From a virus, in IMG/VR virus record IMGVR_UViG_3300045988_129965, positions 1 to 46,435 of that record: DNA of 46,435 nucleotides. One strand, 5' to 3'. A model generated the notes under the pieces. The model saw only the letters and a list, made by a program, of their open reading frames with translations, did no database searches and was not told where the DNA came from. Positions 2,909 to 44,961 of the stretch are shown here, piece after piece; position 1 is the first letter of the stretch; each line of letters starts with the position of its first letter. The position numbers and the translations under genes are program-made.

Positions 2909-3063
2909 TCGAGGGCATCATCTGCGGCGCGGTCGCGGGCTTCTGCCTGGGCTGGCTGCTTGGGCGGACAGGCCGCAGACAACGTATTGAAAACAACGCG
3001 CGCGGCTTCTGGGTGTGGTACGCCCGGGAGCCGCACTCCCCCGAGGAGGTGAAACCTAAATGA
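2905..3063 (+). CDS. Small membrane protein (52 aa)
   Basis: The GTG start overlaps the upstream stop (GTGA) and the stop overlaps the next ATG (ATGA). There is a hydrophobic segment IICGAVAGFCLGWLL. Confidence 0.4.
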   Translation: MIEGIICGAVAGFCLGWLLGRTGRRQRIENNARGFWVWYAREPHSPEEVKPK

Positions 3064-3485
3064 GAGCCAACGAATATCTGGGCCAGCTTGGGCGCATGGA
3101 CGCCAAGATCAATAACCTGCTGCAGGAGAAGCAGCGTCTGCTGGAAGTGGCCACGCGCCTGACGCCGAGCCTGACCGGTATGCCCCACGCGCCCGGCGTG
3201 TCCGACCGTGTGGGCAGCGCGGCCGTCAAGCTGGCGGCGGCCGATGAGGAGATCGACCGTACGATCGACCGCCTGATCGACACGCGCGCCGAGGTGGTAA
3301 AGCTGCTGGAGAAGCTGCCCACCGACGAGTACAACGTGCTGCACCAGTACTACGTGCAGGGTCGCACGGTGGAAACGATCGCCGCGGGATGGTTGCCTCA
3401 GGAGCGCACGGAGCGCCAGGTTTTTCGCATCAAGGCCCGCGCGATGCGCCATGTACAGGCCATTTTAGACGCCCGCGAGGCCTGA
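3060..3485 (+). CDS. Sigma-70 region-4-like late transcription regulator (ArpU/RinA/DUF1492-like)
   Basis: 141 aa. It is the last gene before the late promoter and terminase genes. The C-terminal segment VLHQYYVQGRTVETIA...RIKARAM resembles a sigma region 4 HTH. Confidence 0.6.
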   Translation: MRANEYLGQLGRMDAKINNLLQEKQRLLEVATRLTPSLTGMPHAPGVSDRVGSAAVKLAAADEEIDRTIDRLIDTRAEVVKLLEKLPTDEYNVLHQYYVQGRTVETIAAGWLPQERTERQVFRIKARAMRHVQAILDAREA

Positions 3486-3780
3486 TTCTGTAGTAGTTTG
3501 TAGATTTTGTAGTCATTTTGTAGTCAAAAAAACCCTTGATTTTCAAGGGTTTTTCCCGTTTGACTACAAAATCTACAAAAATTTACCTAACTTATTGAAT
3601 AGGGAAAAAGAAAACGCACGAGCGCATGCGCGTACACCCGCGCGAGAGTATATAGGAATTTTTTGTAGATTTTGTAGATTTTGTAGTCAGAATCCGAAAA
3701 CCCCTTGATATTCCTCAGTTTTTTGTGACTACAAAATCGGCGGGGCTTTGTAGTCATTCTGTTACAGGGCTGTAGTCACG
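3486..3780. repeat. Repeat array A: 12 TGTAG/CTACA motifs, 9-bp tandem TGTAGATTT units, and two TTTTGTAGTCA..TGACTACAAAA palindromes
   Basis: TGTAG occurs at 3489, 3499, 3508, 3519, 3664, 3673, 3682, 3749 and 3771. CTACA occurs at 3564, 3573 and 3729. The core 3561-3689 is homologous to 32515-32649. Confidence 0.9.
3526..3554. terminator. Bidirectional rho-independent terminator after the ArpU-like gene
   Basis: A7 run, stem CCCTTG/CAAGGG with a 5-nt loop, then a T5 run. Confidence 0.8.
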
Positions 3781-3840
3781 GGGCGCCTGGCGGCCGAGGA
3801 CGGGAAGGCAGCGAGGCGCTATGGCCGTAGGGCGGCGCGC

Positions 3841-3903
3841 GAAAAAAAATTTTTCAAATGTCAGTCGATGTCATAGAATGTCACCCTGGACCTGTGATAT
3901 AGT
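3841..3903 (+). promoter_or_regulatory. Candidate late promoter: A/T tract, three ATGTCA boxes at 10-bp phasing, extended -10 TGaTATAGT
   Basis: ATGTCA lies at 3858-3863, 3868-3873 and 3878-3883. TG lies at 3895-3896 and TATAGT at 3898-3903. There is no canonical -35. Confidence 0.55.
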
Positions 3904-3930: not shown

Positions 3931-3976
3931 GCACCCGCTGGAAAGCGCCAGGCCTCAGCAGCCAGGTGCTTTTTTT
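3931..3976 (+). terminator. Leader terminator-like hairpin plus T7 run between the late promoter and the first late gene
   Basis: GCACC..TGG (3931-3941) pairs with CCAGGTGC (3962-3969), followed by seven T at 3970-3976. Confidence 0.45.
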
Positions 3977-3993
3977 ATTGCGAAAGCGAGGTG
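3971..3993 (+). repeat. 23-bp direct repeat copy 1 (TTTTTTATTGCGAAAGCGAGGTG); copy 2 is at 4718..4740
   Basis: 21 of 23 positions are identical to 4718-4740. Both copies follow a hairpin and contain a GAGGTG RBS. Confidence 0.85.
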
Positions 3994-4039: not shown

Positions 4040-4741
4040 ATGCAGGACCTGGCGCCGGGCTCCGTTGACATGGTGCTCTGCGATCTGCCATACGGCACGA
4101 CGGCATGCAAGTGGGACACGATCATCCCGTTTGAGCCGCTATGGGCGCAGTATCGCCGGGTGGTCAAGGAGAACGGCGCGATTGTGCTGTTTTCGGCCCA
4201 ACCGTTCACCACGGCGCTGATACACAGCAACCTAAAGCAGTACCGCTATAATTGGTACTGGCGCAAAAACAACGCCACGGGCGGGATCTTTTGCAAGTAC
4301 CAGCCCATGCGCTGTATCGAGGATATCTGCGTATTCTACCGCAGGATGCCTACCTATAACCCCCAAGGGCTCACGGCGCTGGAAAGGCCCATCGTGAACA
4401 AGCCTGTGCGCTCCCAGACGACACGGGAGAAGAAAACCCCGTCCGTGCAGCGCTTCACCGGCTACCCCAAGCACCTGCTGGAGTTCCCGGGCGTAAACGT
4501 GAGCAGTCAGAAGCGCGTGCATCCGACCCAGAAGCCGGTTGATCTGCTGGCGTATCTGATAAAGACCTACACCGGCCCCGGCGACGTGGTGCTGGACAAC
4601 TGTATGGGCAGCGGCTCCACGGGCGTGGCCTGTGTGAATACCGGCCGCCGGTTCATCGGCATGGAGATGGACGGCGAATATTTTAACATTGCAAGGCAGC
4701 GTATCGATGACGCTGCCTTTTCTATTGAGAAAGCGAGGTGA
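4040..4741 (+). CDS. DNA methyltransferase (N6-adenine/N4-cytosine, beta class, orphan)
   Basis: Motifs DLPYG (DPPY-like), HPTQKP and NCMGSGSTG. In-frame homology (KLYRGDCLEL) extends upstream of ATG 4040 without a start codon. Confidence 0.9.
   Translation: MQDLAPGSVDMVLCDLPYGTTACKWDTIIPFEPLWAQYRRVVKENGAIVLFSAQPFTTALIHSNLKQYRYNWYWRKNNATGGIFCKYQPMRCIEDICVFYRRMPTYNPQGLTALERPIVNKPVRSQTTREKKTPSVQRFTGYPKHLLEFPGVNVSSQKRVHPTQKPVDLLAYLIKTYTGPGDVVLDNCMGSGSTGVACVNTGRRFIGMEMDGEYFNIARQRIDDAAFSIEKAR
4693..4726 (+). terminator. Hairpin plus U-rich tract inside the 3' end of the methyltransferase gene, just before the terS RBS
   Basis: A 9-bp stem AAGGCAGCG/CGCTGCCTT with a 9-nt loop is followed by TTCTATT. 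Confidence 0.45.
4718..4740 (+). repeat. 23-bp direct repeat copy 2 (TTTTCTATTGAGAAAGCGAGGTG)
   Basis: See copy 1 at 3971..3993. Confidence 0.85.
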
Positions 4742-11006: not shown

Positions 11007-11082
11007 GCCGTCGTAGCTCAAGAGGCAGAGCGGTGCATCTGTAATGCATGCGTTGCGGGTTCGATTCCTGCCGACGGCTCCA
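11007..11082 (+). tRNA. tRNA with encoded CCA; formal anticodon UGU (Thr), with a non-canonical C at position 33
   Basis: Manual cloverleaf: 7-bp acceptor GCCGTCG/CGACGGC, D arm GCTC/GAGC with loop AAGAGGCA, anticodon stem GTGCA/TGCAT, loop TCTGTAA, T arm GCGGG-TTCGATT-CCTGC. Confidence 0.75.
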
Positions 11083-16998: not shown

Positions 16999-17027
16999 GG
17001 GATCTTTCCCCTGTCGTTTTCTTTTTT
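16993..17027 (+). terminator. Strong hairpin plus T-rich tract between the chaperone and tape measure genes
   Basis: A 10-bp stem CGATAGGGGA/TCCCCTGTCG (one G-U pair) is followed by TTTTCTTTTTT. Confidence 0.5.
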
Positions 17028-17031
17028 GCAG

Positions 17032-20000
17032 ATGGGGGTGAATAATTTGGCGGTAGTACGTCAGGACGTCGTACAAATGGGGTTCGACGTCGATATGGCC
17101 GAGCTGGATAAGCTGCGGAGCTCGCTGGACGAAATCAAGGAAACCCTCACCGGGGGCCTGGGCAATGACACCTTTGATGACGTGATCAAGGACAGCAAAA
17201 AGGCCAGTGAGGGCATTGACGATATAAAAGAAAGCATTGACGATATCAAGCCGGACGGCATAGAGGATACCGTCAAGGGCCTGAAAAACACGGATACCAA
17301 GGCCGAGGATGCGCATGGGGCGCTTAAAAAGGTCGCGCAGACCAGCTTTGATAAAACTGTTTCAGGCCTTAAGAAAATGGCCGGGGCGCTGGGCACGGTG
17401 GCCAAGAAGGCCGCAAAGCTGGTGGCCAAGGGGCTGGTGGCCGGCGCCGCCGGCGTGGGCGCCCTGACCGCCATGGCCGTGAAAAACTACGCGGACTATG
17501 AGCAGCTGGTCGGCGGCGTCGAGACGCTTTTCAAGGACAGCGCCGGCACGGTGCAGCTTTATGCGGATAATGCGTACAAGTCCGCGGGCCTGTCGGCGAA
17601 CGACTACATGGAAACGGTCACGTCGTTCTCCGCAAGCCTGATCCAGTCCCTGGGCGGCAACACCGGGGCGGCGGCGGAGTACGCCAACATGGCCATCATT
17701 GATATGGCGGACAACGCCAACAAGATGGGCACCGACATGTCCAGCATCCAGGATGCGTATCAGGGCTTTGCCAAGCAAAACTATACGATGCTGGACAACC
17801 TCAAGCTCGGCTATGGCGGCACCAAGACCGAGATGGAGCGCCTGCTCAAGGACGCCACCGCGCTGTCCGGCGTCAAGTACGATATCAGCTCCTACGCGGA
17901 TATCGTGGCGGCCATCCATGTGATCCAGACCGAGCTGGGCGTCACGGGCACGACCAGCAAAGAGGCCAGCGAGACGATCAGCGGCTCCTTTAACGCGCTG
18001 AAATCCGCGTGGAGCAACACGATGACCAGCCTGATCCTGGGCGGCGACGACTTCGACCGCTGCGTCGATAACCTGATCGACTCGGCGAAAACCTTCGGCA
18101 AGAACGTCATGCCCGCGATCATCAAGGGCCTGAACGGCATGGGCGCGCTGATCACGGAGCTTGCGCCCATCGTTGAGCGCGAGCTGCCCGGCATCATCGA
18201 CACCCTGCTGCCTCCGCTGCTCAAGGCGGCGACCTCGCTGCTCAAGGGCATCATCAAGGCGCTGCCGAGCATCATCAGCACGCTGATCGACGAGCTGCCT
18301 ACCATCCTCAAGCAGGTCTGGTCCGCATTCAGTGACGCCTTCGGCGAGATTCCCGGCATGGCCAAGGCCGAGGCGTTTTTCAACAACCTGATCGGGTTTA
18401 TCCAGCGCAATGCTGACACCATCAAAAAGCTCGTTCCGGCCCTGCTTGGCCTGATCGTAGCGTTTAAGATGATCAAGAAAGTACAGGGCATCGCCGGTCT
18501 TTTCGGCGGTAAGGGTGGCAGCGGAGGCGGCATCTTCTCCTCCCTGACCAATCTCCAGCCCACGCAAGCGCTCAAGGGCATGGCCAACCTGGCCATCATT
18601 CTGGGCGGCCTGGCCGCGCTGGCCGCGGTGATCATGTGGGTGGCGCCCTATATGGCGCAGCTGTCCGATATCGGCTCCCTCGCCGAAGTGCTGCTTGCCA
18701 TCACGGCCGTTGGCCTGATCGGCACGGCCATGGCCACCCTGGCGGGCAAGGTGGGCCTTATCCCTGTTGCGACCGTATCCAAGGGCCTGGCCAACATCGC
18801 CATCGTGATGGTGGGCTTTGGCGCCCTGGCGGCGGTGCTCATGTGGCTGGCGCCGTACATCACGCAGCTGTCTGACATAAAAACCACACTTAAGCTGCTG
18901 GTCATAATCGCAGCTGTGGGCCTTGTAGGCTCCGCGCTCGCGGGCCTGGCGGGCCTTGTCGGCGCGATTCCGATCACGGCTGTACTGACGGGCCTGGCTA
19001 ACATTGCGCTGGCCCTGGGCGGCTTTACGGCCATCGTTACGGCCTTTGGCGCGCTGTCCACGATCGACGGCTTCAATGAGTTCCTGACCAAGGGCGGCGA
19101 AACGCTGGCCACGATCTGCGGCATCATCGGCAGGATGGCCGGCAGCATCATCGGCGGCATCGGCGAAGGGATCACCGATTCCCTGCCTGCCATCGGCGAT
19201 AACCTGTCGGCCTTTGCAACGTCGCTGCAGCCCATGTTTACCGTGTTCAGCGGCGTGGACACCGACTCGCTGTCCAGCTTTGCCACCTCGTTCGCGGCCT
19301 TTATCGCCGTGCTCGTGGGTGAAAAGCTCGTCAGCGTGATCACTGGCGGCATCGACTACGAGGGGCTGGGCGTCAAGCTGAGTGCCATGGCCACAGGCCT
19401 GAGCGGCTTTTTCAGCACGGTTATGACCTTCCCCGACGGCGGCTTTGAAAAGGCCACGGCGCTGTTTGACTGCCTGGCCGGTATCAAGGGCATGCCCAAA
19501 GAGGGCGGCGTCGTGGGCTGGTTCGAGGGCGAGGTTGACTACGCCAAGATGGCGACCGGCCTCATGCAGCTGGCCGGCACGACCGGATTCTTTACGGCGG
19601 TACAGGCGATCCCCGATGAAGCCTTTACCAAGGCCTCGGCCCTGTTTGACTGTCTGGCGGGCATTAAGAGCCTGCCGCAGGACGGCGGCGTCGTGGGCTG
19701 GTTTACGGGCGAGGTTGATTTTGCAAAGATCGCCTCGGGCGTCCAGACGCTTGCAAGCGAGGGCATGATCGCGGCGCTTACGGCCATTACAGCCATTCCC
19801 GCTGCGTCCTACGCCAGCCTGACCGCGCTGTTTGACGCCCTGGCCGGCGTGAAGCAGATGCCCAAGGAAGGCGGCATTACCGGCTGGTTCTCCGGCGATA
19901 ACTCGACGGGTCTTAGCAACGTATCCAGCCAGCTGCCGGGCGTGGCGACGAACATCGCATCCTTCTTCACCAACCTGGGCGGCCGGACGGACTTTTCGCC

Positions 20001-20838
20001 CATCAAGACGCTGTTTGACACGCTCAGCAGCATCAAGATCGACTCGGACGCGGCCGACAAGGGCTTCCTGGGGCTCGGTTCCAGTGAGCTGGAAAAGATG
20101 GGCACAGGACTGTCCAATTTCGCCACAAACGCCAAGACCTTCCTGGACGAGGTCAACAACCTGAACGTCGATAACCTGAAAACCTTCTTTGACAACCTGG
20201 GCAAGGCGGGCGAACTGCCGGACAAGCTGTCGGGCCTCAACGGCACGGTGGGCACGGAGCTGAGCAACCTCGTCACCACGGCCACGACCAAGATGGAGGA
20301 AATCAAAACCGCCATCAGCACGGGCATTGACTCGATCGTCGCCGTGTTCACGGACAGCGCCAGCGCCTTCCAGACGGCGGGCAGCGCCATGATGGTCGGC
20401 GTGCAGATCGGCATGGGCAGCAAACTCCCGCTGCTCATCCAGACCGCGCAGTTCATGGCTGAGGCCATCCAGAACGCCTTTGACGTTGAGCTCAAAATCA
20501 ACTCCCCCTCCAAGACCATGACGGAGAGCGGCGAGTTTGTCGGCCTGGGCGGCGTGATCGGCTTGCGCAACATGATTCCCAAGGCGGAAAGCGCGGCGCA
20601 GGACTTTGCCATCGCGTCCACACCGTTTAACGACTATACGCCCGAGGGCAGCGCGGAAACCGTCTATAACAGCCGGTCCGGCGACGTGACCAGCGTGGCC
20701 CCTGTGTTCAACCTGTCCATCAGCGGCACCAAGGACGACCGGGCGATGGCGCGCAAGGTAAAGCAGTTTGTGGCCGAAGCGATCCAGGAAACCTTCGAGA
20801 GCCTGGAGCGCAAGAGCACCGTGCTGCGGGAGGTGTAA
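17032..20838 (+). CDS. Tail tape measure protein
   Basis: About 1270 aa with multiple hydrophobic segments and internal repeats. The alternative start TTG 17047 has a GGGGGTG RBS. Confidence 0.9.
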   Translation: MGVNNLAVVRQDVVQMGFDVDMAELDKLRSSLDEIKETLTGGLGNDTFDDVIKDSKKASEGIDDIKESIDDIKPDGIEDTVKGLKNTDTKAEDAHGALKKVAQTSFDKTVSGLKKMAGALGTVAKKAAKLVAKGLVAGAAGVGALTAMAVKNYADYEQLVGGVETLFKDSAGTVQLYADNAYKSAGLSANDYMETVTSFSASLIQSLGGNTGAAAEYANMAIIDMADNANKMGTDMSSIQDAYQGFAKQNYTMLDNLKLGYGGTKTEMERLLKDATALSGVKYDISSYADIVAAIHVIQTELGVTGTTSKEASETISGSFNALKSAWSNTMTSLILGGDDFDRCVDNLIDSAKTFGKNVMPAIIKGLNGMGALITELAPIVERELPGIIDTLLPPLLKAATSLLKGIIKALPSIISTLIDELPTILKQVWSAFSDAFGEIPGMAKAEAFFNNLIGFIQRNADTIKKLVPALLGLIVAFKMIKKVQGIAGLFGGKGGSGGGIFSSLTNLQPTQALKGMANLAIILGGLAALAAVIMWVAPYMAQLSDIGSLAEVLLAITAVGLIGTAMATLAGKVGLIPVATVSKGLANIAIVMVGFGALAAVLMWLAPYITQLSDIKTTLKLLVIIAAVGLVGSALAGLAGLVGAIPITAVLTGLANIALALGGFTAIVTAFGALSTIDGFNEFLTKGGETLATICGIIGRMAGSIIGGIGEGITDSLPAIGDNLSAFATSLQPMFTVFSGVDTDSLSSFATSFAAFIAVLVGEKLVSVITGGIDYEGLGVKLSAMATGLSGFFSTVMTFPDGGFEKATALFDCLAGIKGMPKEGGVVGWFEGEVDYAKMATGLMQLAGTTGFFTAVQAIPDEAFTKASALFDCLAGIKSLPQDGGVVGWFTGEVDFAKIASGVQTLASEGMIAALTAITAIPAASYASLTALFDALAGVKQMPKEGGITGWFSGDNSTGLSNVSSQLPGVATNIASFFTNLGGRTDFSPIKTLFDTLSSIKIDSDAADKGFLGLGSSELEKMGTGLSNFATNAKTFLDEVNNLNVDNLKTFFDNLGKAGELPDKLSGLNGTVGTELSNLVTTATTKMEEIKTAISTGIDSIVAVFTDSASAFQTAGSAMMVGVQIGMGSKLPLLIQTAQFMAEAIQNAFDVELKINSPSKTMTESGEFVGLGGVIGLRNMIPKAESAAQDFAIASTPFNDYTPEGSAETVYNSRSGDVTSVAPVFNLSISGTKDDRAMARKVKQFVAEAIQETFESLERKSTVLREV

Positions 20839-29014: not shown

Positions 29015-29755
29015 ATGGCATATGACAAACAAAAAGTGATCAATATCGCCCTGGCGGAGGAGGGCTATCGCGAGAAAAACAGCGCCACCCAGCTGGACGA
29101 CAAGGCCGCCAACGCCGGCTCTAAAAACTATACCAAGTACGCCCGCGATCTGGACGCGCTGGGCTTCTATAACGGTCGCAAGCAGGGCGCGGCCTGGTGC
29201 GATGTGTTCGTGGACTGGTGCTTTGTACAGGCCTACGGCAAGGCCGCGGCCCTGGCCATGACCTTCCAGCCTACCAAGGCGGCCAACAACTGCGGCGCCG
29301 GCTGCCGCTACAGCCGCAACTACTACAAGGCCAAGGGCCAGCTGTTCAACGACCCGCAGCCGGGCGATCAGATTTTCTTCTGGTCCGCGGACCGCAGCCA
29401 GGTGCAGCACACAGGGCTGGTCTACAAGGTAACGGACAGCCGGGTATTTACGATTGAGGGCAACGCCTCCGACGGCGTGCGCAGGAAGGTCTACAGCCGC
29501 GCCTACAGCCGCCTGGCGGGCTTTGGGCGCCCGGCCTATGGAACGGCCCAGCCCGCGCAGCAAACGCCCTCAGCGGCCGCCACGGGCCAGCAATCGCAGT
29601 ATCAGACCTACACGGTCAAGCGCGGCGATTGCCTGTGGAACATTGCCGCCCGATTCCTGGGCAGCGGCGTCCGCTATAAGGAGATCGTGCAGCTCAACGG
29701 CCTCAAATCGTCCCTGATCCGCACCGGGCAGGTGCTCAAGATTCCAAAGCGCTAA
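29015..29755 (+). CDS. Endolysin: CHAP-type amidase/peptidase domain plus a C-terminal LysM
   Basis: The sequence has CHAP-like Cys/His context (AAWCDVFV..., QHTGLV) and the LysM segment YTVKRGDCLWNIAARF. GGAGGG lies 7 nt upstream of ATG 29015. Confidence 0.8.
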   Translation: MAYDKQKVINIALAEEGYREKNSATQLDDKAANAGSKNYTKYARDLDALGFYNGRKQGAAWCDVFVDWCFVQAYGKAAALAMTFQPTKAANNCGAGCRYSRNYYKAKGQLFNDPQPGDQIFFWSADRSQVQHTGLVYKVTDSRVFTIEGNASDGVRRKVYSRAYSRLAGFGRPAYGTAQPAQQTPSAAATGQQSQYQTYTVKRGDCLWNIAARFLGSGVRYKEIVQLNGLKSSLIRTGQVLKIPKR

Positions 29756-32439: not shown

Positions 32440-32700
32440 TCCTGTAGTCAAAATCCCGTTTTGTAGTCAAGTCTGTTAACAGAAAAAGCGAGGAAAATCA
32501 ACGGGTTTTCGGCTTGACTACAAATGACTACAAAAATTCACCTAACTAATTGAATAGAGAAAATTGTACATAGGCGAGCGCGGGAGCGCGTGCGCGTACA
32601 CCCGCGCGAGGCTATATAGGAATTTTCTGTAGATTTTGTAGATTTTGTAACAACCCTTATTTTTCAAGGGTTTTTTTGACTACCGAATGACTACAGAAGG
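32440..32700. repeat. Repeat array B: TGTAG/CTACA motifs, a TTTTGTAGTCA..TGACTACAAA palindrome, and a core homologous to 3561-3689
   Basis: TGTAG occurs at 32443, 32462, 32628 and 32637. CTACA occurs at 32518, 32528 and 32691. The block 32591-32649 matches 3627-3685 at 56 of 59 positions. Confidence 0.9.
32653..32677 (+). terminator. Hairpin plus T7, a sequence relative of the 3526-3554 terminator
   Basis: ACCCTT/AAGGGT stem with a 7-nt loop, followed by T7. Confidence 0.65.
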
Positions 32701-34042: not shown

Positions 34043-34065
34043 ATGGGTCACCCCCTTTCACAAAG

Positions 34066-36378: not shown

Positions 36379-36548
36379 ACGCCGCGATATCGTTCCTTCT
36401 GATCTTCCTGCCCGGGCTGGCGGTGTACATCGCTTTCCGGGCGCTGCGCCTGACCGGCCGGATCCTGGGGTTCCTGGCGGGCCGCGCGGCGCGGCTGTTG
36501 CAGCACGAGCTTGTGATGCGGCCACAGAGCCGCTACTTTGTGGGGTGA
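36375..36548 (+). CDS. Small membrane protein (57 aa)
   Basis: ATGA-coupled start; hydrophobic N-terminus AISFLLIFLPGLAVYIAF. Confidence 0.45.
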   Translation: MNAAISFLLIFLPGLAVYIAFRALRLTGRILGFLAGRAARLLQHELVMRPQSRYFVG

Positions 36549-36552
36549 GGAT

Positions 36553-37755
36553 ATGGCAAAGCGTAAGATCGACCACCAGAGCCGCAGCCACGCGCTGCTG
36601 AGCGCATCGGGCGCGGAGCTGTGGCTCAACTGCCCCGGCAGCGCCATCGCCGCCGAGCAGTACCCCGATGAGCAGACCGTTTTCACCCAGGAGGGCACCA
36701 TCGCCCACGAGGTGGCGCAGGTGTACGCCGAAAGCCTGCTGTCGCGCGAGGGCTTCCCCGGCCTGGACGCGGGGCTCAAGGAGCTCCGCGCCAAGTGGGG
36801 CGAGGCCATCACCGGCGAAATGCTGGAATGCGCCGAGGGCTACGCCGCCTACATCCAGGAGCACATGACGCCCACCAGCACGGTGCTGCTGGAGCAGCGG
36901 CTGGACTTTTCGCCCTGGGTGCCCGAGGGCTTTGGCACGGGCGACTGCATCATCATCGATGCCGGCCGCCTGACCGTGATCGACTACAAGTATGGCCAGG
37001 GCGTGGCCGTGGAAACGCGGGGCAACCCGCAGATGCGGCTGTACGCCCTGGGCGCCATCAACGACTACGGCTGTGTGTACGACTTTGACGAGGTGGTCAT
37101 GTCCATCTACCAGCCGCGCATCAACAACATCAGCGAATTCGCCGAGCCCGTGGAGGGGCTGCTGCAATGGGCCGAGACCGTGGTGCAGCCCACCGCCGCC
37201 GAGGCGTTCAGCGGCAGCCCGCGCTTTACCCCCGGCCCGCACTGCCGCAAGTTCTGCAAGCATGCCGGCCGTTGCCCGGCGCTGACCCAGTACTGCAGCG
37301 ACTTTGTGGAAACGCACGGCCTGCGGGCCGCCGTCCCCCACCTGATGGACGGCGAGTACCTTGAGATCGTTCAGATGGAGCCGCTGATCCGCATGTGGCT
37401 GGACCGCACGATGCGCACCGCCACGGACCGCATCCTGGCGGGCGACAAGATCGAGGGCCTGAAAGTGGTCGAGGGCCGCAGCCTGCGCAAGTGGAGCGAT
37501 GAGGACAAGGTCGAGAACGTCCTGCTCCACTCCCCGGCCATCGCTGATAACGACGCCGTCTACGAACCTGCGACCCTCAAGACCGTCGCGGCCATGGAAA
37601 AGGCCATCGGCAAGAAAAAGGTGGCCGAGCTCCTGGGCGATCTGATCGTCAAGGCCCCCGGCAAGCCCACGCTGGCCCTGGCCGTCGATAAGCGGCCGGA
37701 TTACAGCCTGGGCGCGGACTTTGAAAACCTGGACGCTGGAGGTGGGCAGCCGTGA
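36553..37755 (+). CDS. PD-(D/E)XK (Cas4/RecB-like) nuclease, DUF2800-like
   Basis: It has the segment GDCIIIDAGRLTVIDYKYG and a C-terminal Cys cluster, CRKFCKHAGRCP, and lies in conserved synteny with the DUF2815-like and polA genes. Confidence 0.7.
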   Translation: MAKRKIDHQSRSHALLSASGAELWLNCPGSAIAAEQYPDEQTVFTQEGTIAHEVAQVYAESLLSREGFPGLDAGLKELRAKWGEAITGEMLECAEGYAAYIQEHMTPTSTVLLEQRLDFSPWVPEGFGTGDCIIIDAGRLTVIDYKYGQGVAVETRGNPQMRLYALGAINDYGCVYDFDEVVMSIYQPRINNISEFAEPVEGLLQWAETVVQPTAAEAFSGSPRFTPGPHCRKFCKHAGRCPALTQYCSDFVETHGLRAAVPHLMDGEYLEIVQMEPLIRMWLDRTMRTATDRILAGDKIEGLKVVEGRSLRKWSDEDKVENVLLHSPAIADNDAVYEPATLKTVAAMEKAIGKKKVAELLGDLIVKAPGKPTLALAVDKRPDYSLGADFENLDAGGGQP

Positions 37756-37952
37756 TGAAGCTCGGCCATGTGACCGTCGTCCTGGTTGGTAAGGAATATG
37801 TGTTCCCGTATGTCGAGGACATGTCCGTTCGCACCGTTTGCAACAATACGCTGCTGCGGCTGGAAATCAGCCCCCGTGGCAGCGAAATGGTCTGTCTGGA
37901 TTTCACCCCGGCGCAGCTGCTGCGCATCGAGACGCGCGAGATCAAAGAATAA
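37755..37952 (+). CDS. Hypothetical protein (65 aa)
   Basis: TGATG-coupled start after GGAGGTGGG. Confidence 0.45.
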   Translation: MKLGHVTVVLVGKEYVFPYVEDMSVRTVCNNTLLRLEISPRGSEMVCLDFTPAQLLRIETREIKE

Positions 37953-37976
37953 CCTACATAGAAGGAGAGCAAAACC

Positions 37977-38528
37977 ATGTCTGAAAAAATCGTATTGAAA
38001 AACGTCCGTCTGAGCTATGAGCACATCTTCCACGCCGATGCGATCGGCGACAGCGAGCCCAAGTATTCGGCCAGCTGGATCATCCCCAAGGAGCACCCGC
38101 AGGTCAAGGCCGTCAAGGAGGCGCTGGTCAAGGCGCTGGATGAGAAATTCCCCGGCAAGCGCAAGCCCGGCGCGCCGTGGCCCAGCAGCTTCCACAGCCC
38201 GCTGGCCGACGGCGACGAAATGGCCGACGAGCATCCTGAGTATGCCGGCTGCTATGTGCTCAAATCCAGCAGCAAAAACCGCCCGCTGGTGATGGGCCGC
38301 CGCAAGGAGCAGCTCACCGAGGAGGACGGCGTGATCTATTCCGGCTGCTACTGCAACGCAAGTCTGGCCGCGGCGGGCTTTGAGTTTGAAAAGCTCAAGA
38401 AGGGCGTGACCGTGTATCTCAACGGCGTGCAGTTTGTCCGCGACGGCGAGCGCCTGGCGGGCTATGACGCCTCGGGCGACTTCGACGAGCTGGACGACGA
38501 GGCGGACGACTATGACGGCCTCATCTGA
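37977..38528 (+). CDS. DUF2815-like ssDNA-binding protein with an acidic tail
   Basis: N-terminus VLKNVRLSYEHIF and C-terminus DELDDEADDYDGLI. Confidence 0.7.
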   Translation: MSEKIVLKNVRLSYEHIFHADAIGDSEPKYSASWIIPKEHPQVKAVKEALVKALDEKFPGKRKPGAPWPSSFHSPLADGDEMADEHPEYAGCYVLKSSSKNRPLVMGRRKEQLTEEDGVIYSGCYCNASLAAAGFEFEKLKKGVTVYLNGVQFVRDGERLAGYDASGDFDELDDEADDYDGLI

Positions 38529-40467
38529 GCACACGCTGTTCGCTGATATCGAAACCTACAGCAGCGCAGATCTGGCCCGCGGCGGTGTGCGCAAGTACAC
38601 CGAGGCCCCGGACTTTGACATCCTGCTCATGTCCTACGCCTGGGATGACGAGCCCGTTCGCGTGTGGGATTTCACCGCGGACGGCCCGCCGCCCTGGCTG
38701 CGCGAGGCGCTGCTGGACGAGACGGTGCTCAAGGTGGCCTGGAACATTTCCTTTGAGCGCACCTGCTTTAACCGCTATTTTGACCTGTACACGCCGCCCG
38801 AGCAGTGGCGTGACGCCATGACCCTGGCCGCGATGAACGGCCTGCCCATGAGCCTGGAGGCGGCGGGCGCCGCCCTCCGGCTCACGGAGCAGAAGCTGGA
38901 CACCGGCAAGGCGCTGATCAATTACTTTTGCAAGCCCTGCCGGCCTACCAAGACAAACGGCGGGCGCACGCGCAACCTGCCCGAGCACGCCCCGGACAAG
39001 TGGCAGCAGTTCATCACCTACTGCGGCCGGGACACCGAGGTGGAGCGCACGATCTACAAGCGCCTGATCCATTTCCCCGTGACCGCCACCGAGCGGCGCG
39101 TGGAATGGGCGGACGCGCGCATCAACGAGCGCGGCGTGATGATCGACCGGCAGCTTGTGGCCTCGGCCATCCGCATGGACGACGCCTTCAAGGCCGAGCA
39201 CATGCAAGAGATGCAAAGGCTTACCGGGCTTGAAAACCCCAACAGCCTGGTGCAGCTCAAGGCCTGGCTGGCCACCCGGGGCCTCACGCCCGAGACGCTT
39301 GACAAAAAGGCCGTGACCGAGCTGCTTGGCACGGCCATTGACCCCACGACCCGGCGCGTGCTGCGGCTTCGCCAGCTGCTTGGCAAGAGCAGCACCGCCA
39401 AGTATACCGCCATGGAGGAGGCCGTTTGCAACGACGGCCGCATCCGAGGCCTGCTGCAGTACTACGGGGCGGGACGCACCGGCCGCTGGGCCGGCCGCCG
39501 CGTGCAGCTGCAAAACCTGGCACAAAACCACCTGGACCAGATCGACCTGGTGCGCGACATTGTCAAGCACGGCGATCTGGAAGGGCTGGAGCTGATATAC
39601 GACAACGTGCCCGATGTGCTCAGCCAGCTCATCCGCACGGCACTAATCGCAAAGGACGGGCACACCTTTCTGGTGGCCGACTATCACGCCATCGAGGCCG
39701 TGTGCATCGCCTATCTGGCGGGCGAGGGCTGGCGGCTGAACGTTTTCGCCGGCGACGGCAAGATCTACGAGGCCTCCTACGCCCAGGCCTTCGGCGTGCC
39801 CAAGGAAAGCGTGAAAAAGGGCACGCCCGAGCGCCAGAAGGGCAAAATCATGGAGCTGGCCCTGGGCTATGGCGGCGGGCCCTCCGCGCTGCTGGCCTTT
39901 GGCGCCGACAAGCTGGGGCTGGAACCCGAGCAGCTGCAGGAGCTGGTGGACAGGTGGCGCGCGGCGTCCCCCAAGATCACCGCCATGTGGCGCGCCTGTG
40001 AAAAGGCCGCCAAGGCCGCCATCCGCTGCCCGGGCAAGGCGTACAGGCTGAAAAACGCCTGCACCTACCTGCGGGATCGGGACGCGCTGCGGCTGATCCT
40101 GCCCAGCGGCCGCCGGCTTTCCTACTGGGGCGCCTGGCTGGACGAGGACAGCGGCAGCATCCGCTTTTTGGGCCAGAACCAGACCACCCGCAAATGGGAG
40201 CGCATGGAGACCTGGGGCGGGCGGTTGGTGGAAAACATCGTGCAGGCCTACGCCCGCGATATCCTGGCCGAGGCCATATTGCGCCTGGAGGCCGCGGGCT
40301 TCCCCGTGGTGTTCTCCGTGCACGACGAGTGCATTGTGGAGGCGCCCGAGGGCACCCGCTGGCAGGATATGGCCGAGATTATGGGCCAGCCCGTATCCTG
40401 GGCGCCGGGGCTGGACAAGTACCTGCACGCAGATGGATACGAGACAATATTTTACAGGAAGGACTGA
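38512..40467 (+). CDS. Family A DNA polymerase with a 3'-5' exonuclease domain
   Basis: Exo I motif FADIETYS, motif B-like KGKIMELALGYGGG, and motif C SVHDE. Confidence 0.92.
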   Translation: MTASSEHTLFADIETYSSADLARGGVRKYTEAPDFDILLMSYAWDDEPVRVWDFTADGPPPWLREALLDETVLKVAWNISFERTCFNRYFDLYTPPEQWRDAMTLAAMNGLPMSLEAAGAALRLTEQKLDTGKALINYFCKPCRPTKTNGGRTRNLPEHAPDKWQQFITYCGRDTEVERTIYKRLIHFPVTATERRVEWADARINERGVMIDRQLVASAIRMDDAFKAEHMQEMQRLTGLENPNSLVQLKAWLATRGLTPETLDKKAVTELLGTAIDPTTRRVLRLRQLLGKSSTAKYTAMEEAVCNDGRIRGLLQYYGAGRTGRWAGRRVQLQNLAQNHLDQIDLVRDIVKHGDLEGLELIYDNVPDVLSQLIRTALIAKDGHTFLVADYHAIEAVCIAYLAGEGWRLNVFAGDGKIYEASYAQAFGVPKESVKKGTPERQKGKIMELALGYGGGPSALLAFGADKLGLEPEQLQELVDRWRAASPKITAMWRACEKAAKAAIRCPGKAYRLKNACTYLRDRDALRLILPSGRRLSYWGAWLDEDSGSIRFLGQNQTTRKWERMETWGGRLVENIVQAYARDILAEAILRLEAAGFPVVFSVHDECIVEAPEGTRWQDMAEIMGQPVSWAPGLDKYLHADGYETIFYRKD

Positions 40468-40474
40468 CGCAGAT

Positions 40475-40651
40475 ATGAAAATCACCCTTGAACTGCCTGA
40501 TAAAACGACTTTACTCGGGCTTTTCCTCAATGTTTCAGACGGCAAACAGAAAATCGTGACAACCAACTGGTTGACGGATGCAAAGGACGGCAAAATCATC
40601 CACTGCGATGAGAACTGCAAAATCGTAGAAACCTTACCAGATTCTAAATAA
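40475..40651 (+). CDS. Small hypothetical protein (58 aa), in a visibly A/T-richer insert
   Basis: ATG start, in frame with the track ORF 40334..40651. Confidence 0.45.
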   Translation: MKITLELPDKTTLLGLFLNVSDGKQKIVTTNWLTDAKDGKIIHCDENCKIVETLPDSK

Positions 40652-40665
40652 AGGACTGATAACAC

Positions 40666-40830
40666 ATGCGACCGATCGACAAAGACGCGATGATCACCCT
40701 GAAAGTGCTCCGCGGCCGCCTGACCGGGCAGCAGTACAGCACGCTGAAAGGGCAAATTTTGTCAGGCGATGCCGACGGCGCCATGAAGGGGCTGCGCAAG
40801 CTGATAAAACGAGAGGGTGATATCAGATGA
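40666..40830 (+). CDS. Small hypothetical protein (54 aa)
   Basis: The stop overlaps the primase ATG (ATGA). Confidence 0.45.
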   Translation: MRPIDKDAMITLKVLRGRLTGQQYSTLKGQILSGDADGAMKGLRKLIKREGDIR

Positions 40831-43208
40831 CCCTGCAATACGACCGGGCGCTCAGGATTGCCCTGGGCACCGGCCGAAAGACCAAGCGCTGGAAAAACCG
40901 CACGATGCAATGGTCTGAGCTCCTGGACCGGCTGGGCCATTTCGTCGTGACCAATGAGACGGTGGCTCAGTACAAGGCCATGAGCCGCGACCGGCAGGCC
41001 GAGATCAAGGACGTGGGCGGCTTTGTGGGCGGCTACTGCAAGGACGGCAGCCGCAAAAACGTGGTCAGCCGATCGGTTTTGTGCCTGGACGCCGACTACG
41101 CGGACGGCGATCTGTGGCCCGACTGGCAGCTGCTCTACGACTGCGCATCGGCCGTTTACTCTACGCACAAGCACACCCCGGAGGCGCCGCGCGTGCGCCT
41201 GGTGGTGCCCCTCGCCCGGGACGTTGACCCCGACGAGTACGCCGCCGTCGCGCGCCGTGTGGCCGCAGACCTGGGCATTGACAAGTTTGACGATACCACC
41301 TACGGCGTGGACCGGCTGATGTACTGGCCAAGCCGCTCGGCTGACGGCGAGCAGGTATTCCGCTATCAGGACGGGGAGTTCCTGGACCCCGACGCGGTGC
41401 TTGCCCGGTACGACGACTGGCACGACATCAGCACCTGGCCGGTGAGCCACCGCGTGGCCGACGTTGTGCGAAAGAGCGCCGCCCGGCAAAAGGACCCGCT
41501 GGAAAAGGGCGGCCTTGTGGGCGCGTTCTGCCGCACCTACGGCATCGAGGAGGCCATTGCCAAGTACCTGCCGGACGTGTACCTGCCCTGCGACGAGCCG
41601 GGCCGCTACACCTATGCGGGCGGCAGCACGGCCGCCGGCGCCGTGGTGTACGAGGATAAATTCATCTACAGCCACCACGCCACGGACCCCGCCAGCGGGC
41701 AGCTGTGCAACGCCTGGGACGCCGTGCGGCTGCACCGGTTCCTGGACCTGGACGAAAACAAGGACCCGGACACCCCGGCCGTAAGGCTCCCAAGCTACCA
41801 GGCCATGGCCGAGCTGGCCATGCAGGATGAAAACGTTCGCACCACGGCCGTCAACGACCGAATGAATGACACGGGCGGCGACTTTGACGTCCTGCCCGAC
41901 GACGACCCGGACGCCTGGAAAAAGGACCTCGATCTCACCCAGGACGGCGGTATCCGGTCGAGCCTGGCCAATATCCGCCTGATCCTGGAGCATGACCCAT
42001 CGCTCAAGGGCTGCCTTGCCTACGACGAGCTGGACATGCTGCCCGCCGTCCGGCGCGATCTGCCCTGGCGCGAGGCGCGCGATCGGCGCGGCCGCACCTG
42101 GCAGAACAGCGACGACGCGAACCTGCGTTTGTATATGGAGCGCGTGTACGGCATTACCGGCAAGGAAAAGATCCTCGACGGCGTGGACACCACGGCCAAC
42201 GCCCACCGCTTTCACCCGATTCGCGAGTACATCCGGGCGGCGGAGTGGGACGGCGCACCCCGCGTGGATACGCTGCTCATCCGTTACCTGGGCGCCGAGG
42301 ACACGGCCTATGTGCGCGCCGTCACCCGCAAGACGCTGGTGGCCGCCGTGGCCCGCGTGTTCCGGCCGGGCATCAAGTTTGACTACATGCTCACCATCCG
42401 CGGCAAACAGGGCATCGGCAAGTCTGCGCTGCTCAGCCGCCTGGCGGGCGAATGGTTCTCGGACAGCTTTTCCACCATGCAGGGCAAGGAGGCCTATGAG
42501 CAGGTGCGCCGCGCCTGGATCATCGAGGTAGGCGAGCTGGCCGGCATGAAAAAGGCCGAGGCCGAGACCATCAAGCTGTTTATCTCCAAGCAGGAGGATC
42601 AATACCGGCCGGCCTATGGCCGCCAGGTGGAGGTTTTCCCGCGGCAGTGCATCTTTATCGGCACGACCAACGAATCCGAGTTTTTACGCGATACCACCGG
42701 CAACCGCCGCTTCTGGGTGGTGGACACCCCGAACAGCGACGGGCGCATCGATTTTCGCCCCGAGCTCACCCAGGACGTCGTGCATCAGATCTGGGCGGAG
42801 GCCTACACCTACTATAAGCAGGGCGAAACGCTGTACCTGTCGGGCGAGCTGGACGCCGAGGCCGCGATCACGCAGGCCGCTCATGCCGAGCACGACGAGC
42901 GCGAGGGCATGGTGCTGGATTATTTGGACCGCAAGCTGCCGGCTGGCTGGGACGGCATGGGGCTGTACGAGCGCCGGGAGTGGCTGGAGTCCGACGCCCG
43001 CGGCACGGTGCCGCGGCGCTATGTGTGCCGGATGGAAATCTGGTGCGAGGTGTTTGGCAATCCGCCGGGCAAGTATTCGACCTTCGAGGGCAAGACGATC
43101 CACGCGATCCTGGAGGCCTGCGGCTGGCATTATCAAAAATACCCGCGCCGGTTCCCCGAGTACGGCGCACAGCGGGCTTATGTAAAGGGAGGGGAAGCAG
43201 ATGCTTGA
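40827..43208 (+). CDS. Primase-polymerase / VirE-type P-loop helicase (replicative primase-helicase)
   Basis: 793 aa with Walker A GKQGIGKS and VirE-like C-terminal half motifs. Confidence 0.85.
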   Translation: MTLQYDRALRIALGTGRKTKRWKNRTMQWSELLDRLGHFVVTNETVAQYKAMSRDRQAEIKDVGGFVGGYCKDGSRKNVVSRSVLCLDADYADGDLWPDWQLLYDCASAVYSTHKHTPEAPRVRLVVPLARDVDPDEYAAVARRVAADLGIDKFDDTTYGVDRLMYWPSRSADGEQVFRYQDGEFLDPDAVLARYDDWHDISTWPVSHRVADVVRKSAARQKDPLEKGGLVGAFCRTYGIEEAIAKYLPDVYLPCDEPGRYTYAGGSTAAGAVVYEDKFIYSHHATDPASGQLCNAWDAVRLHRFLDLDENKDPDTPAVRLPSYQAMAELAMQDENVRTTAVNDRMNDTGGDFDVLPDDDPDAWKKDLDLTQDGGIRSSLANIRLILEHDPSLKGCLAYDELDMLPAVRRDLPWREARDRRGRTWQNSDDANLRLYMERVYGITGKEKILDGVDTTANAHRFHPIREYIRAAEWDGAPRVDTLLIRYLGAEDTAYVRAVTRKTLVAAVARVFRPGIKFDYMLTIRGKQGIGKSALLSRLAGEWFSDSFSTMQGKEAYEQVRRAWIIEVGELAGMKKAEAETIKLFISKQEDQYRPAYGRQVEVFPRQCIFIGTTNESEFLRDTTGNRRFWVVDTPNSDGRIDFRPELTQDVVHQIWAEAYTYYKQGETLYLSGELDAEAAITQAAHAEHDEREGMVLDYLDRKLPAGWDGMGLYERREWLESDARGTVPRRYVCRMEIWCEVFGNPPGKYSTFEGKTIHAILEACGWHYQKYPRRFPEYGAQRAYVKGGEADA

Positions 43209-43593
43209 AAAAGAACTGGAGCGCAAGCTCCGCTACTACGTTGAGACAGGGCTGGGCGGGCGGTGTATGAAATGGGTGAGCCCAGGCAACCGCGGCGTGC
43301 CCGACCGCATCGTGCTGCTGCCCGGCGGCCGTGTGGCCTTCATTGAAATGAAGCGCCCTGGCGGCCGCGTGGACCCGCTGCAGGAGTACTGGCACAAGCA
43401 GCTGCGAAGCCTGGGCTACCCGGTGTATGTGATCTACACGCTGGACGACCTGCTGAGCGTGCTCAGGGCGCTCAAGCACCTGGAGCCCCCTGACGCCCGG
43501 GAGCTTATGCAGGCACGCAAGGCCCTCGATGAGACGACCGCCGAGCTGCGTTATTGGCGAAGCGAATACAACCGGCTGGCCGCGAAGGAGTGA
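43201..43593 (+). CDS. VRR-NUC domain nuclease
   Basis: The segment GVPDRIVLLPGGRVAFIEMKRPGG matches the D..ExK core. Confidence 0.8.
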   Translation: MLEKELERKLRYYVETGLGGRCMKWVSPGNRGVPDRIVLLPGGRVAFIEMKRPGGRVDPLQEYWHKQLRSLGYPVYVIYTLDDLLSVLRALKHLEPPDARELMQARKALDETTAELRYWRSEYNRLAAKE

Positions 43594-43599
43594 CGGCCG

Positions 43600-44961
43600 A
43601 TGCGCTATACCCCGTACCCCTTCCAGCTCAAGGCCATCCAGTGGATTCTGGACCGCCCGGCAGCGGGGCTTTTCCTGGGCATGGGCTGCGGCAAAACCGT
43701 GTGCACGCTGACCGCCATTGACCAGCTGATCTACGACCGCATGGAGGTAAACAAGGTGCTGGTCATCGCGCCCCTGCGGGTGGCGCAGGATACCTGGGCC
43801 AAGGAGGCCACAAAGTGGGATCATCTGCGCCATCTGCGCATCGCGCGCATGACCGGCCCGGCCGACAAACGCCTGGCCGCCCTGACAAACGAGGCCGATG
43901 TGTACGTGATCAACCGCGAAAATGTATGCTGGCTGTGTGAAAATGTCAAGGACTGGCCCTTTGACATGGTGGTGATCGACGAGCTGAGCAGCTTCAAGTC
44001 CGCCCAGGCCAAGCGCTTCAAGGCGCTGCGCAGGCGACTGGGCAGCGTGCGGCGCATCGTCGGCCTGACCGGCACGCCGGCGCCCAACGGTCTGATCGAC
44101 CTGTGGCCACAGATCTACCTATTGGACCGCGGCGCGCGCCTGGGCAAAACGCTGACGGCCTACCGCAGCGCCTACTTTGCCCCCGACCGCATGAACGGCC
44201 CGGTGGTATACAGCTACCGGCTGCTGCCGGGTGCGGAGGACACGATTCACGGCAGGATCGCCGATCTGTGCATGAGCCTGAAAAAGGAGGATTACCTCAG
44301 CCTCCCGGGCCAGATTTACGAGGACGTGGAGCTGACGCCGCCGCCGGCGCTGCTGCGGCAATACCGCAAGTTTGAGCGTGACCACGTGCTGCCCGCCCTG
44401 GACGGCTCGGGCGATATCGTAGCCCTGAACGCCGCGAGCCTGACGGGAAAGCTCCTGCAGTACGCCAACGGCGCGATCTACGATGACGAGCGCGGCGTGC
44501 ATACGGTGCACAACCTGAAGCTCGACGCCCTGGAGGAACTGATCGAGGCGGCGGCCGGCGAGCCCGTGCTGGTATTCTACGCCTTCCGGCACGACCGCGA
44601 CCGCATCAAGGCGCGCATCCCCTGCCGGGAGCTTTCCACCAGCGCCGACATTGACGCCTGGAATAAGAAAGAGATCCCCGTTGCCATCGCCCACCCGGCC
44701 AGCGTCGGCCACGGCCTCAACCTGCAGGAGGGCGGGCACATCATCATCTGGTTTGGCCTGACGTGGAGCCTGGAGCTGTACCAGCAGGCCAATGAGCGGC
44801 TCAACCGCCCCGGCCAGACAAGCGTCTGCCGGATCTATCACCTGATACTCAAGGGCACGCATGACGAGCGCGTGCTGGCGGCCCTCAAGGCCAAGGATAC
44901 CAGCCAGCGCGCCCTGATCGAGGCCCTAAAGCAAAGCATAAAGGAGGACACAGAAAAATGA
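43600..44961 (+). CDS. SNF2-family helicase
   Basis: Walker A-like GMGCGKT, DExx box VIDELSSF, and helicase C-terminal motifs. Confidence 0.88.
   Translation: MRYTPYPFQLKAIQWILDRPAAGLFLGMGCGKTVCTLTAIDQLIYDRMEVNKVLVIAPLRVAQDTWAKEATKWDHLRHLRIARMTGPADKRLAALTNEADVYVINRENVCWLCENVKDWPFDMVVIDELSSFKSAQAKRFKALRRRLGSVRRIVGLTGTPAPNGLIDLWPQIYLLDRGARLGKTLTAYRSAYFAPDRMNGPVVYSYRLLPGAEDTIHGRIADLCMSLKKEDYLSLPGQIYEDVELTPPPALLRQYRKFERDHVLPALDGSGDIVALNAASLTGKLLQYANGAIYDDERGVHTVHNLKLDALEELIEAAAGEPVLVFYAFRHDRDRIKARIPCRELSTSADIDAWNKKEIPVAIAHPASVGHGLNLQEGGHIIIWFGLTWSLELYQQANERLNRPGQTSVCRIYHLILKGTHDERVLAALKAKDTSQRALIEALKQSIKEDTEK

Follow-up and report, generated by a model that had tools for sequence, protein, structure and literature searches.

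Two matched iteron modules in a temperate gut phage are probable replication origins of the SaPI type

Two repeat modules in a circular phage genome

The DNA analysed here, 46,435 nucleotides of the IMG/VR virus record IMGVR_UViG_3300045988_129965 (the window), represents a temperate phage and carries two similar non-coding modules made of short TGTAG(T/A) words, of which one follows an ArpU-like regulator gene (module A) and the other lies next to a serine integrase gene (module B). A sequence-only reading of the window had concluded that no described element type fits them. This view is not supported, as the modules match the published design of the replication origins (ori) of Staphylococcus aureus pathogenicity islands (SaPIs; PMC9371898) and the phage encodes a homologue of the SaPI Rep helicase. 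Judged from sequence comparison, it is in our view probable that both modules are SaPI-type iteron origins, that is, origin-type elements bound by a Rep protein.

Module A lies downstream of the ArpU-like regulator gene (3060-3485, phrog_36) and is followed by genes for a DNA methylase (4040), TerS (4738; Terminase_2) and TerL (5132; Terminase_3), the packaging genes being of the SPP1 type (Terminase_2, SPP1_portal). Module B is located between the serine integrase gene (30815-32362, minus strand) and the lysogeny genes, among them that of a cI-like repressor (33683-34051), and both placements agree with what had been described before. The open reading frame (ORF) beside B comprises 250 amino acids as listed, or 209 amino acids with the later start codon chosen by the gene callers, which put no gene inside either module. 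The GC content of the modules is 38-41% compared to ~60% for the genome.

Since bases 1-55 of the window are identical to bases 46381-46435, the DNA forms a circle, with a genome of 46,380 bp, on which A and B are separated by 28,964 bp along one arc and by 17,416 bp along the other. We recomputed identity, word counts and spacing from the window and compared them with composition-matched shuffles (5000 per module, 100 for the whole window). The match at 56 of 59 positions between 3627-3685 and 32591-32649 and the similarity, with few changes, of 3561-3608 to 32515-32563 were both reproduced. The duplication of ~130 bp that had been proposed is real but was drawn too short, as the modules align over ~300 columns with 81% identity and the duplicated stretch covers ~250-300 bp (3486-3780 and 32440-32700). 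The order of the parts is identical in A and B, namely outer words, a hairpin, two inverted words, the core, two to three direct words, a hairpin, and outer words. In both modules the core measures ~85 bp, the inner-right direct words are spaced by 9 bp, and the second hairpin-like element follows 166-169 bp after the first. The parts are as follows.

Module A
3486..3780, plus strand: module A, an origin-like module with all parts present, flanked by the ArpU-like gene (3060-3485) and the late promoter; GC content 38%
3489..3524, plus strand: outer-left iterons, four TGTAG(T/A) words at 3489, 3499, 3508 and 3519
3528..3554, unstranded: left hairpin AAAAACCCTTGATTTTCAAGGGTTTTT, which resembles a bidirectional terminator closing the early operon; same type in the modules of relatives
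3563..3577, minus strand: inner-left iterons, two TGTAG(T/A) words at 3563 and 3572
3578..3663, unstranded: core, consisting of an AT-rich left part of ~37 bp (candidate unwinding element), then the GC-rich hairpin GCGCG-TACACC-CGCGC, then TATATAGGAATTTT
3664..3687, plus strand: inner-right iterons, three TGTAG(A/T) words with 9-bp spacing at 3664, 3673 and 3682
3697..3723, unstranded: right hairpin-like element AAAACCCCTTGATATTCCTCAGTTTTT, which repeats the left hairpin in degenerate form 169 bp further downstream
3728..3776, mixed strands: outer-right iterons, at 3728 on the minus strand and at 3749 and 3771 on the plus strand

Module B
32440..32700, plus strand: module B, second complete origin-like module, between the start of the serine integrase gene (32362, minus strand) and a lysogeny-side gene (32744-33496, minus strand); 41% GC
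32443..32467, plus strand: outer-left iterons, two words at 32443 and 32462, plus the degenerate CTGTTAACAG at 32473
32483..32509, unstranded: left hairpin-like element, degenerate, of the same repeat family as the hairpins of A
32517..32532, minus strand: inner-left iterons, two words at 32517 and 32527
32533..32627, unstranded: core, homologous to that of A, with 9 inserted bp (TTGTACATA) and an extended GC-rich hairpin; its right half equals A at 56 of 59 positions
32628..32651, plus strand: inner-right iterons, two words at 32628 and 32637 and a degenerate third, TGTAAC, at 32646
32652..32680, plus strand: right hairpin AACCCTTATTTTTCAAGGGTT with a T-run behind it, resembling a plus-strand terminator
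32680..32695, minus strand: outer-right iterons, one word at 32690 on the minus strand and the degenerate GACTACC at 32680

TGTAG or its complement CTACA occurs 12 times in 3486-3780, where 0.64 copies are expected and the maximum among the shuffles was 6, and 7 times in 32440-32700 (0.56 expected, maximum 5), the latter with 2 further degenerate words. These counts are those given before, and the motif density of both modules lies far above that of the composition-matched shuffles. In the whole window, TGTAGW was found 44 times compared to 14.8 +/- 3.6 expected copies, a number reached in none of the 100 shuffles, and 19 of the 44 copies fall inside A and B. Outside the modules, six CTACA words occur on one strand at 29308-29608 within a coding region of the late operon and are probably codon-driven. 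The array spacings of 9, 9, 9, 10, 10 and 11 bp bear out the phasing of 9-11 bp. A second recurrent motif, CTGTTA(A)CAG, had been proposed as well; it is not an independent signal, as CTGTTAC has just two occurrences (3759 and 32711), which correspond to each other in the duplication, and the supposed copy at 32473 is a degenerate iteron position.

A primase-helicase related to the SaPI Rep proteins

The genes for DNA replication form a block on the plus strand of the window.

36538..44961, plus strand: replication module, found together with the origin-like module in all relatives
36538-37755, plus strand: DUF2800 PD-(D/E)XK exonuclease
37977-38528, plus strand: gp2.5-like SSB (a protein that binds single-stranded DNA), annealing
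38434-40467, plus strand: family A DNA polymerase
40827..43208, plus strand: primase-helicase of 793 amino acids, SaPI Rep homologue, the proposed reader of the iterons via its C-terminal domain (~residues 700-793)
43201-43593, plus strand: VRR-NUC nuclease
43600-44961, plus strand: SNF2 helicase

The primase-helicase carries a VapE-like domain (PF05272, E=1.5e-82; phrog_256) and matches phrog_9765 ('DNA primase') with residues 1-415. Its residues 364-717 match residues 17-374 of SaPI1 Rep1 (PDB 7PDS, E=1.7e-77), the structure of which represents a Rep1-DNA complex (PMC9371898). In addition, a profile built from 26 C-terminal domains (window and relatives) aligns to residues 300-465 of the 477 residues of Rep1 (E=9.4e-16), and the DNA-reading domain is therefore homologous too. 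Neither a DnaB-type helicase nor a loader was detected among the window proteins scanned.

SaPI Reps are self-loading helicases and initiators at the same time, and their C-terminal winged helix reads penta- or hexanucleotide iterons; the corresponding ori is located just downstream of rep and consists of 6-12 iterons with an AT-rich centre and at least two opposed iterons per side (PMC9371898). Module A provides 12 TGTAG(T/A) words and module B 7 plus 2 degenerate ones. Around the core, A has two words on the minus strand (3563, 3572) opposed to three on the plus strand (3664-3682), and B has two per side. As such, the modules of the window display every architectural property of a SaPI ori with the exception of adjacency to rep.

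Occurrence of the module in relatives

Loci of relatives were fetched via the primase-helicase from three collections, with 10-22 kb captured per locus. The number of helicase relatives found in metagenomes amounts to 511, and about 50 helicase relatives show the same architecture built from a word of their own, most loci that are long enough carrying one cluster. These words include TGTTCAC, TGTTCC, TGCAAC, GATGCAC, TTGTCAC, TGTAAC, TGTTTCA and GGCAAC, of which most fit TG-N3-CA, and the cores between them are AT-rich and cannot be aligned with each other. The cluster starts no more than ~70 bp from the helicase stop codon in at least 30 loci and resides inside the early operon; in the clade nearest to the window, it is found 2-8 kb downstream of the helicase gene. 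Common to all 20 viral loci are only the six replication proteins of the window, whereas TerS, TerL, the ArpU-like protein, Int and cI are not common to these module-bearing loci. Since only the replication proteins are universal, we conclude that the module belongs to the replication system and not to packaging, late transcription or integration. Of the earlier suggestion of a replication or packaging region, the first half is hence supported, while the second is not, given that the terminases of module-bearing relatives are unrelated.

The index of the collection lists the same ArpU-like protein in 35 blocks (23 contigs read). Its closest relatives (L008/L090 and L009/L079) show the same architecture in the same place, with AT-rich, internally palindromic cores, the word being TTTGTTCAC in L008/L090 and TGTAG in the more distant L009/L079. 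Among the ArpU-like loci, the architecture is restricted to these two closest ones (L008, L009). A locus whose ArpU-like protein is 33% identical (L010) has a one-directional array of ~12 TTCCGG and degenerate copies with 9-13 bp spacing at 4405-4550, downstream of the ArpU-like gene and just before a promoter-like region, with neither opposed arrays nor a core. The module was found upstream of int in none of the 19 inspected loci that had been fetched via the integrase, and linkage to int is consequently not general.

Searches with the nucleotide sequence itself returned little. A BLASTN search of module A against 50,697 phage records had as its sole match a terminator hairpin of 25 nucleotides in Aeribacillus phage AP45. 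An exact-pattern scan of IMG/VR with one core word gave 7 matches, all of which are chance occurrences in unrelated AT-rich or coding DNA without TGTAG context, and the scan with the other core word gave none.

Two further elements recur in the modules. A hairpin of the type AAACCCTTG...CAAGGGTTT is situated between the outer and the inner word sets even where the words differ, namely at 3528-3554, 3697-3723, 32483-32509 and 32649-32675 in the window as well as in L079, L081, L083, L090, L092, L093, L106 and others. The density of AACCCTTG (at most one mismatch) is 1.06 per kb in 54 modules compared to 0.29 per kb elsewhere, and the module hairpin may serve as an ordinary terminator or belong to the origin as one of its conserved parts. 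Moreover, a ACGCGTATATAG-like box is present near the right inner words in the otherwise unalignable cores of L095, L102, L104, L105 and L108, with CGCGCGAGAGTATATAGG at 3636-3657 as its counterpart in the window. Possible roles of this box are those of a priming site, of a promoter or of a nucleus for melting.

Repeat words and the tail of the helicase

If the primase-helicase reads the words, the two would be expected to change together. We compared 53 loci with respect to the 'wing', by which we mean the last ~25 helicase residues between a conserved Trp and a conserved YGxQR. In L091/L096 (TGTAAC) and L093 (TGTTTCA), the helicase and the helices of the C-terminal domain are 96-97% identical, whereas the wing is only 55% identical. 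None of the 11 pairs with a helicase identity of at least 85% and a wing identity below 70% has the same word. Conversely, wing and word are both common to the partners in L082/L089, L083/L106 and L087/L098, in which the modules lie 5-7 kb from the gene. For modules located more than 1.5 kb from the gene, the same word is found in 5 of 6 pairs with a wing identity of at least 75% and in 10 of 103 pairs with a wing identity below 65%. The word hence appears to track the wing of the helicase, which is supportive of our interpretation without being proof, as relatedness and linkage confound part of the pattern.

Several observations weigh against the modules being origins read by this helicase. 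With regard to the wing, the tail in L091/L093 adjoins the module, so that linkage alone could explain a joint replacement; the mapping of words to tails is many-to-one, with the same word accompanying different wings (for example L087 compared to L142 and L154); and sliding-window identity along the helicase (40 amino acids) revealed no segment that separates same-word from different-word pairs. With regard to the window, module A starts 6,658 bp past the helicase stop codon and module B ends 8,132 bp before the helicase start, and as both are thus distant from the gene, the hallmark of SaPIs, an ori directly downstream of rep, is absent here. The core is furthermore not uniformly AT-rich, as it holds a GC-rich hairpin of ~30 bp. 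The small early ORFs, moreover, have no detectable homologues in the relatives, and another fast-evolving small protein could therefore be the true binder. GC skew, which we considered as an origin indicator, was uninformative because it follows gene orientation.

Taking these points into account, we still favour the SaPI-type origin, and the course of events that we infer for it would be as follows. After infection or induction, the early operon would produce the primase-helicase of 793 amino acids (40827-43208), whose predicted C-terminal winged-helix domain would bind the TGTAG(T/A) words. Two helicase rings could then form at the opposed arrays that flank the core, the AT-rich part of which would melt and allow the helicase to load itself. 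The N-terminal primase domain would prime synthesis, and the family A polymerase of the phage together with the gp2.5-like SSB would take over. The same protein would bind both copies, and at least one of them would fire as an origin, while the other could be an additional origin or, with the initiator bound to it, a barrier at which forks stall, as has been proposed for oriR of phage SPP1. Nucleases and the annealing protein might subsequently turn theta replication into the concatemer-forming mode that is needed for headful packaging. All steps from binding through melting to firing, like the function of the second copy, are predictions of this scheme.

Conservation and possible role of the second copy

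In the 10-22 kb captured per locus, the relatives show one module each; L079, L086 and L087 include the int-lysogeny region and have none there. Apart from the window phage, only L121 was found to have two copies, and these occupy the same two places: one follows the ArpU-like gene and the other lies between cI and int. L121 has the gene order of the window, and its helicase is 91%, its TerS 96% and its cI only 42% identical to those of the window. In L080 (helicase 74% identical), the int-side copy is present and the contig ends before the other position. The window corresponds to scaffold_415 of ENA ERZ28575804 (sample SAMEA4545441). Other samples contributed 8 contigs that conserve module A and 3 further ones that conserve module B; no word varies among them, and A and B differ by fixed changes. 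Many samples yielded contigs that form one circle of ~46 kb with both copies. The two modules of L121 are 81% identical to each other (core 91%), whereas the positional orthologues are less alike (74% between the A modules of the window and L121, 59% between the B modules). It follows that either sequence was exchanged between the copies or the module was duplicated again after the two phages diverged; either way, the pair appears to have been kept matched.

What the second copy does can be pictured in different ways. Under the scheme outlined above, it would be a second origin or would block forks and in this way turn replication to concatemers. More specifically, one could speculate that A and B are a coupled pair and not redundant origins, in which one copy fires and the other, occupied by the same Rep-like helicase beside int and the lysogeny genes, serves as a programmed fork barrier or as a looping partner, a possibility that we put forward only tentatively. 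If true, the barrier copy would switch replication from theta to concatemer mode or would tie replication to the control of excision and lysogeny. The pair would then be kept matched by gene conversion, and a temperate gut phage would have arrived on its own at the dual-origin logic known from SPP1, by way of a self-loading initiator that is unrelated to that of SPP1.

It has also to be considered that B (or A) is an iteron control locus, which titrates the initiator or pairs with the true origin ('handcuffing') and in this way modulates replication or transcription toward int. Precedents are the incA iterons of plasmid P1 and the crr region of phage P4. As A and B bear the same words, they must compete for the same protein, and the greater similarity of the two L121 copies compared to their orthologues likewise suggests a pair that is kept matched. 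However, no part of the architecture is missing from B, which has the core as well as both hairpin elements, while control loci of plasmids are normally devoid of an unwinding region. We consider such a locus unlikely; in any case, it is a refinement of the origin interpretation and not an alternative to it.

Alternative explanations

The leading idea of the sequence-only reading was a binding platform for a transcription regulator (the ArpU-like, cI-like, cro-like or membrane-HTH protein) that co-regulates the late genes and int. The position of A between the ArpU-like gene and the late promoter, the position of B upstream of int and the phasing by one helical turn, which is typical of activator arrays, are all compatible with it, as is the finding that the cI/cro operator region of L147 bears the same 7-mer as the origin-like module of that locus. 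In L147 (2820-3010 and 16973-17103), palindromes of GTGGAAC/GTTCCAC, the word of the module, are present in the divergent cI/cro-type promoter region, which may be a coincidence or may reflect cross-talk between the lysis-lysogeny switch and replication. In at least 30 relatives, however, the module directly follows the helicase gene in the early operon, far from late promoters and int, and the late promoter of the window has its own three ATGTCA repeats, both of which argue against a coupling of late transcription to int expression. Moreover, the word is independent of the ArpU-like protein, being TGTAG in L079 (46% identical) and TGTTCAC in L090 (67% identical); cI, cro and the HTH-membrane protein have no or only weak homologues in module-bearing relatives; and the module is missing upstream of int in all of the 19 integrase relatives. 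As a general notion, a shared platform for a DNA-binding protein is thus correct; the protein in question is, however, most likely the primase-helicase, and a role of the four regulators appears very unlikely to us.

A still more improbable explanation is that the modules are pac sites, i.e. repeats bound by TerS that flank a cleavage region as in pac of P1 or pacL/pacR of SPP1. Module A does lie just upstream of the packaging genes (methylase 4040, TerS 4738, TerL 5132), and pac of P1 resembles the modules in that hexamer arrays flank a central region. On the other hand, relatives with the same architecture, even the TGTAG-bearing L079, have unrelated TerS and TerL proteins, the module is located beside the helicase gene and not the terminase gene in most relatives, and a second site at a distance of 29 kb would yield sub-genomic headfuls.

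Equally hard to credit is a core that represents a duplicated structured small RNA: the single-strand folding of the cores exceeds that of shuffles somewhat (z = -2.4 for A, -3.1 for B) and the plus-strand hairpin with T-run after the B core could end a short transcript, but the fold is not conserved in L121 (z = +0.3), the cores of relatives are unalignable AT-rich DNA, a sigma-70-like promoter was looked for in B and none was found, and Rfam 15 gave no match in the modules at the gathering threshold, permissive filters yielding only generic hairpin models far below it. The same low probability applies to a mobile miniature element, for which the different intergenic sites of the module in different phages could be cited, and to a substrate for recombination that splits the genome, as relatives have one copy per genome, always together with this replication module, as the contigs of many samples assemble as single circles of ~46 kb that retain both copies, and as there is no evidence of recombination between the copies.

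Comparison with known replication systems

The likeness of the window phage to SaPIs comprises a homologous initiator (helicase core, E=1.7e-77; C-terminal domain, E=9.4e-16), iterons of 5-6 nucleotides with at least two opposed ones per side, the fusion of the primase to the helicase as in SaPI5 and, in many of its relatives, an origin that begins right after the helicase stop codon. It differs from them in that it is a tailed temperate phage of 46 kb and no satellite, in that there are two copies, neither of which adjoins the helicase gene, in that the centre contains a GC-rich hairpin besides AT-rich DNA, and in that outer iterons and a conserved hairpin extend the module to ~290 bp.

In phage SPP1, oriL and oriR have the same organisation, are 12-13 kb apart on a circle of 44 kb and are both bound by gp38; in the model proposed for it, gp38 at oriR stalls the fork and thereby brings about the shift from theta to concatemer (sigma) replication via an exonuclease, an annealing protein, SSB and a junction resolvase (PMC6316719, PMC3485210). 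Similar to SPP1, the window phage has two alike origin-like regions made of repeats and a candidate AT-rich unwinding element in a genome of ~44-46 kb, here 17.4 kb apart on the shorter arc, with one proposed initiator for both copies, one copy outside the replication module, headful-type packaging genes, and an exonuclease (36538), an annealing SSB (37977) and a VRR-NUC nuclease (43201) that could restart stalled forks. Unlike SPP1, which uses gp38 together with the loader gp39 and the DnaB-type helicase gp40, it encodes a single Rep-like primase-helicase; oriL resides inside gene 38 in SPP1, and SPP1 is virulent, while the window phage is temperate with one copy abutting int. As neither a DnaB-type helicase nor a loader was detected, the resemblance is one of function and not of family membership.

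The alpha protein of phage P4 is another fused primase-helicase with a C-terminal winged-helix domain that binds the origin at short iterons (TGTTCACC). P4 needs two separate iteron-bearing regions in cis, ori and crr, and crr, 4.5 kb away from ori, consists of a duplicated block of iterons and lacks an origin core. The relative L090 uses TGTTCAC as its word, and, in contrast to P4, the copies of the window are both complete modules.

Such origins have already been recognised outside SaPIs. For the Enterococcus phage Abitsa, a SaPI5-like origin with seven 10-bp repeats around an AT-rich region was predicted beside a Rep-like helicase gene (PMC13517437), and in SCCmec the origin bound by Cch2 is found next to a Rep-like self-loading helicase and has only three 5-nucleotide iterons (PMC7581432). 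Unlike in the window, both are single-copy origins beside the helicase gene.

Further features of the window

The late-promoter block at 3851-3895 contains ATGTCA three times at an exact phasing of 10 bp (3858, 3868 and 3878), and the third copy overlaps a TAGAAT hexamer resembling a -10 element (ending at 3879) of a promoter-like match at 3851-3879. The plus strand of the window has only 7 copies of ATGTCA in total. L121 conserves the block, L008 and L009 have it in a degenerate form, and it is probably an ArpU-like-dependent late promoter that is distinct from the TGTAG arrays.

A GC-rich stretch at ~3795-3830, between A and the late promoter, has its equivalent at ~4735-4770 in L109-L116; in related contigs from other samples, the equivalent is a tandem repeat of the unit TCGAGGGCGG in 2-4 copies, of which the window has a divergent variant. 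A block of 27 nucleotides, TGC(T/C)TTT(T/C)TATTG(C/A)GAAAGCGAGGTG, is found upstream of the methylase gene (3967-3993) and upstream of the TerS gene (4714-4740) with 89% identity. In L121, the methylase gene is elsewhere and the equivalent block directly precedes TerS, which together with the repeat suggests that the methylase gene was inserted as a cassette. A tRNA-Thr gene (anticodon TGT) is located at 11007-11082 within the head-gene region, and three tandem repeats of ~180 bp with 72-81% identity lie at 19396-19898 within an ORF of 1270 amino acids (17026-20838), presumably the tape-measure gene.

Implications

Iteron origins with self-loading Rep helicases are already known from SaPIs and have been inferred for Abitsa and SCCmec, and dual origins are known from SPP1. 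What is new is a SaPI-type origin that is detached from the helicase gene, its presence in two complete copies that evolve together, of which one is next to int, in a lineage of temperate gut phages, and a family-wide catalogue of cognate words and helicase tails.

Overall, the proposed origins provide a widespread gut phage with a concrete and testable origin and initiator. The same rule assigns origins to a large family of phages with a PolA / Rep-like primase-helicase module, which aids annotation, phage engineering and the design of resistance by origin titration. As a pair of co-evolving origins, modules A and B offer a natural system for examining how general the second-origin switch model of SPP1 is with an unrelated initiator, and the phage-specific words together with the helicase tails constitute raw material for the study of how winged helices read DNA.

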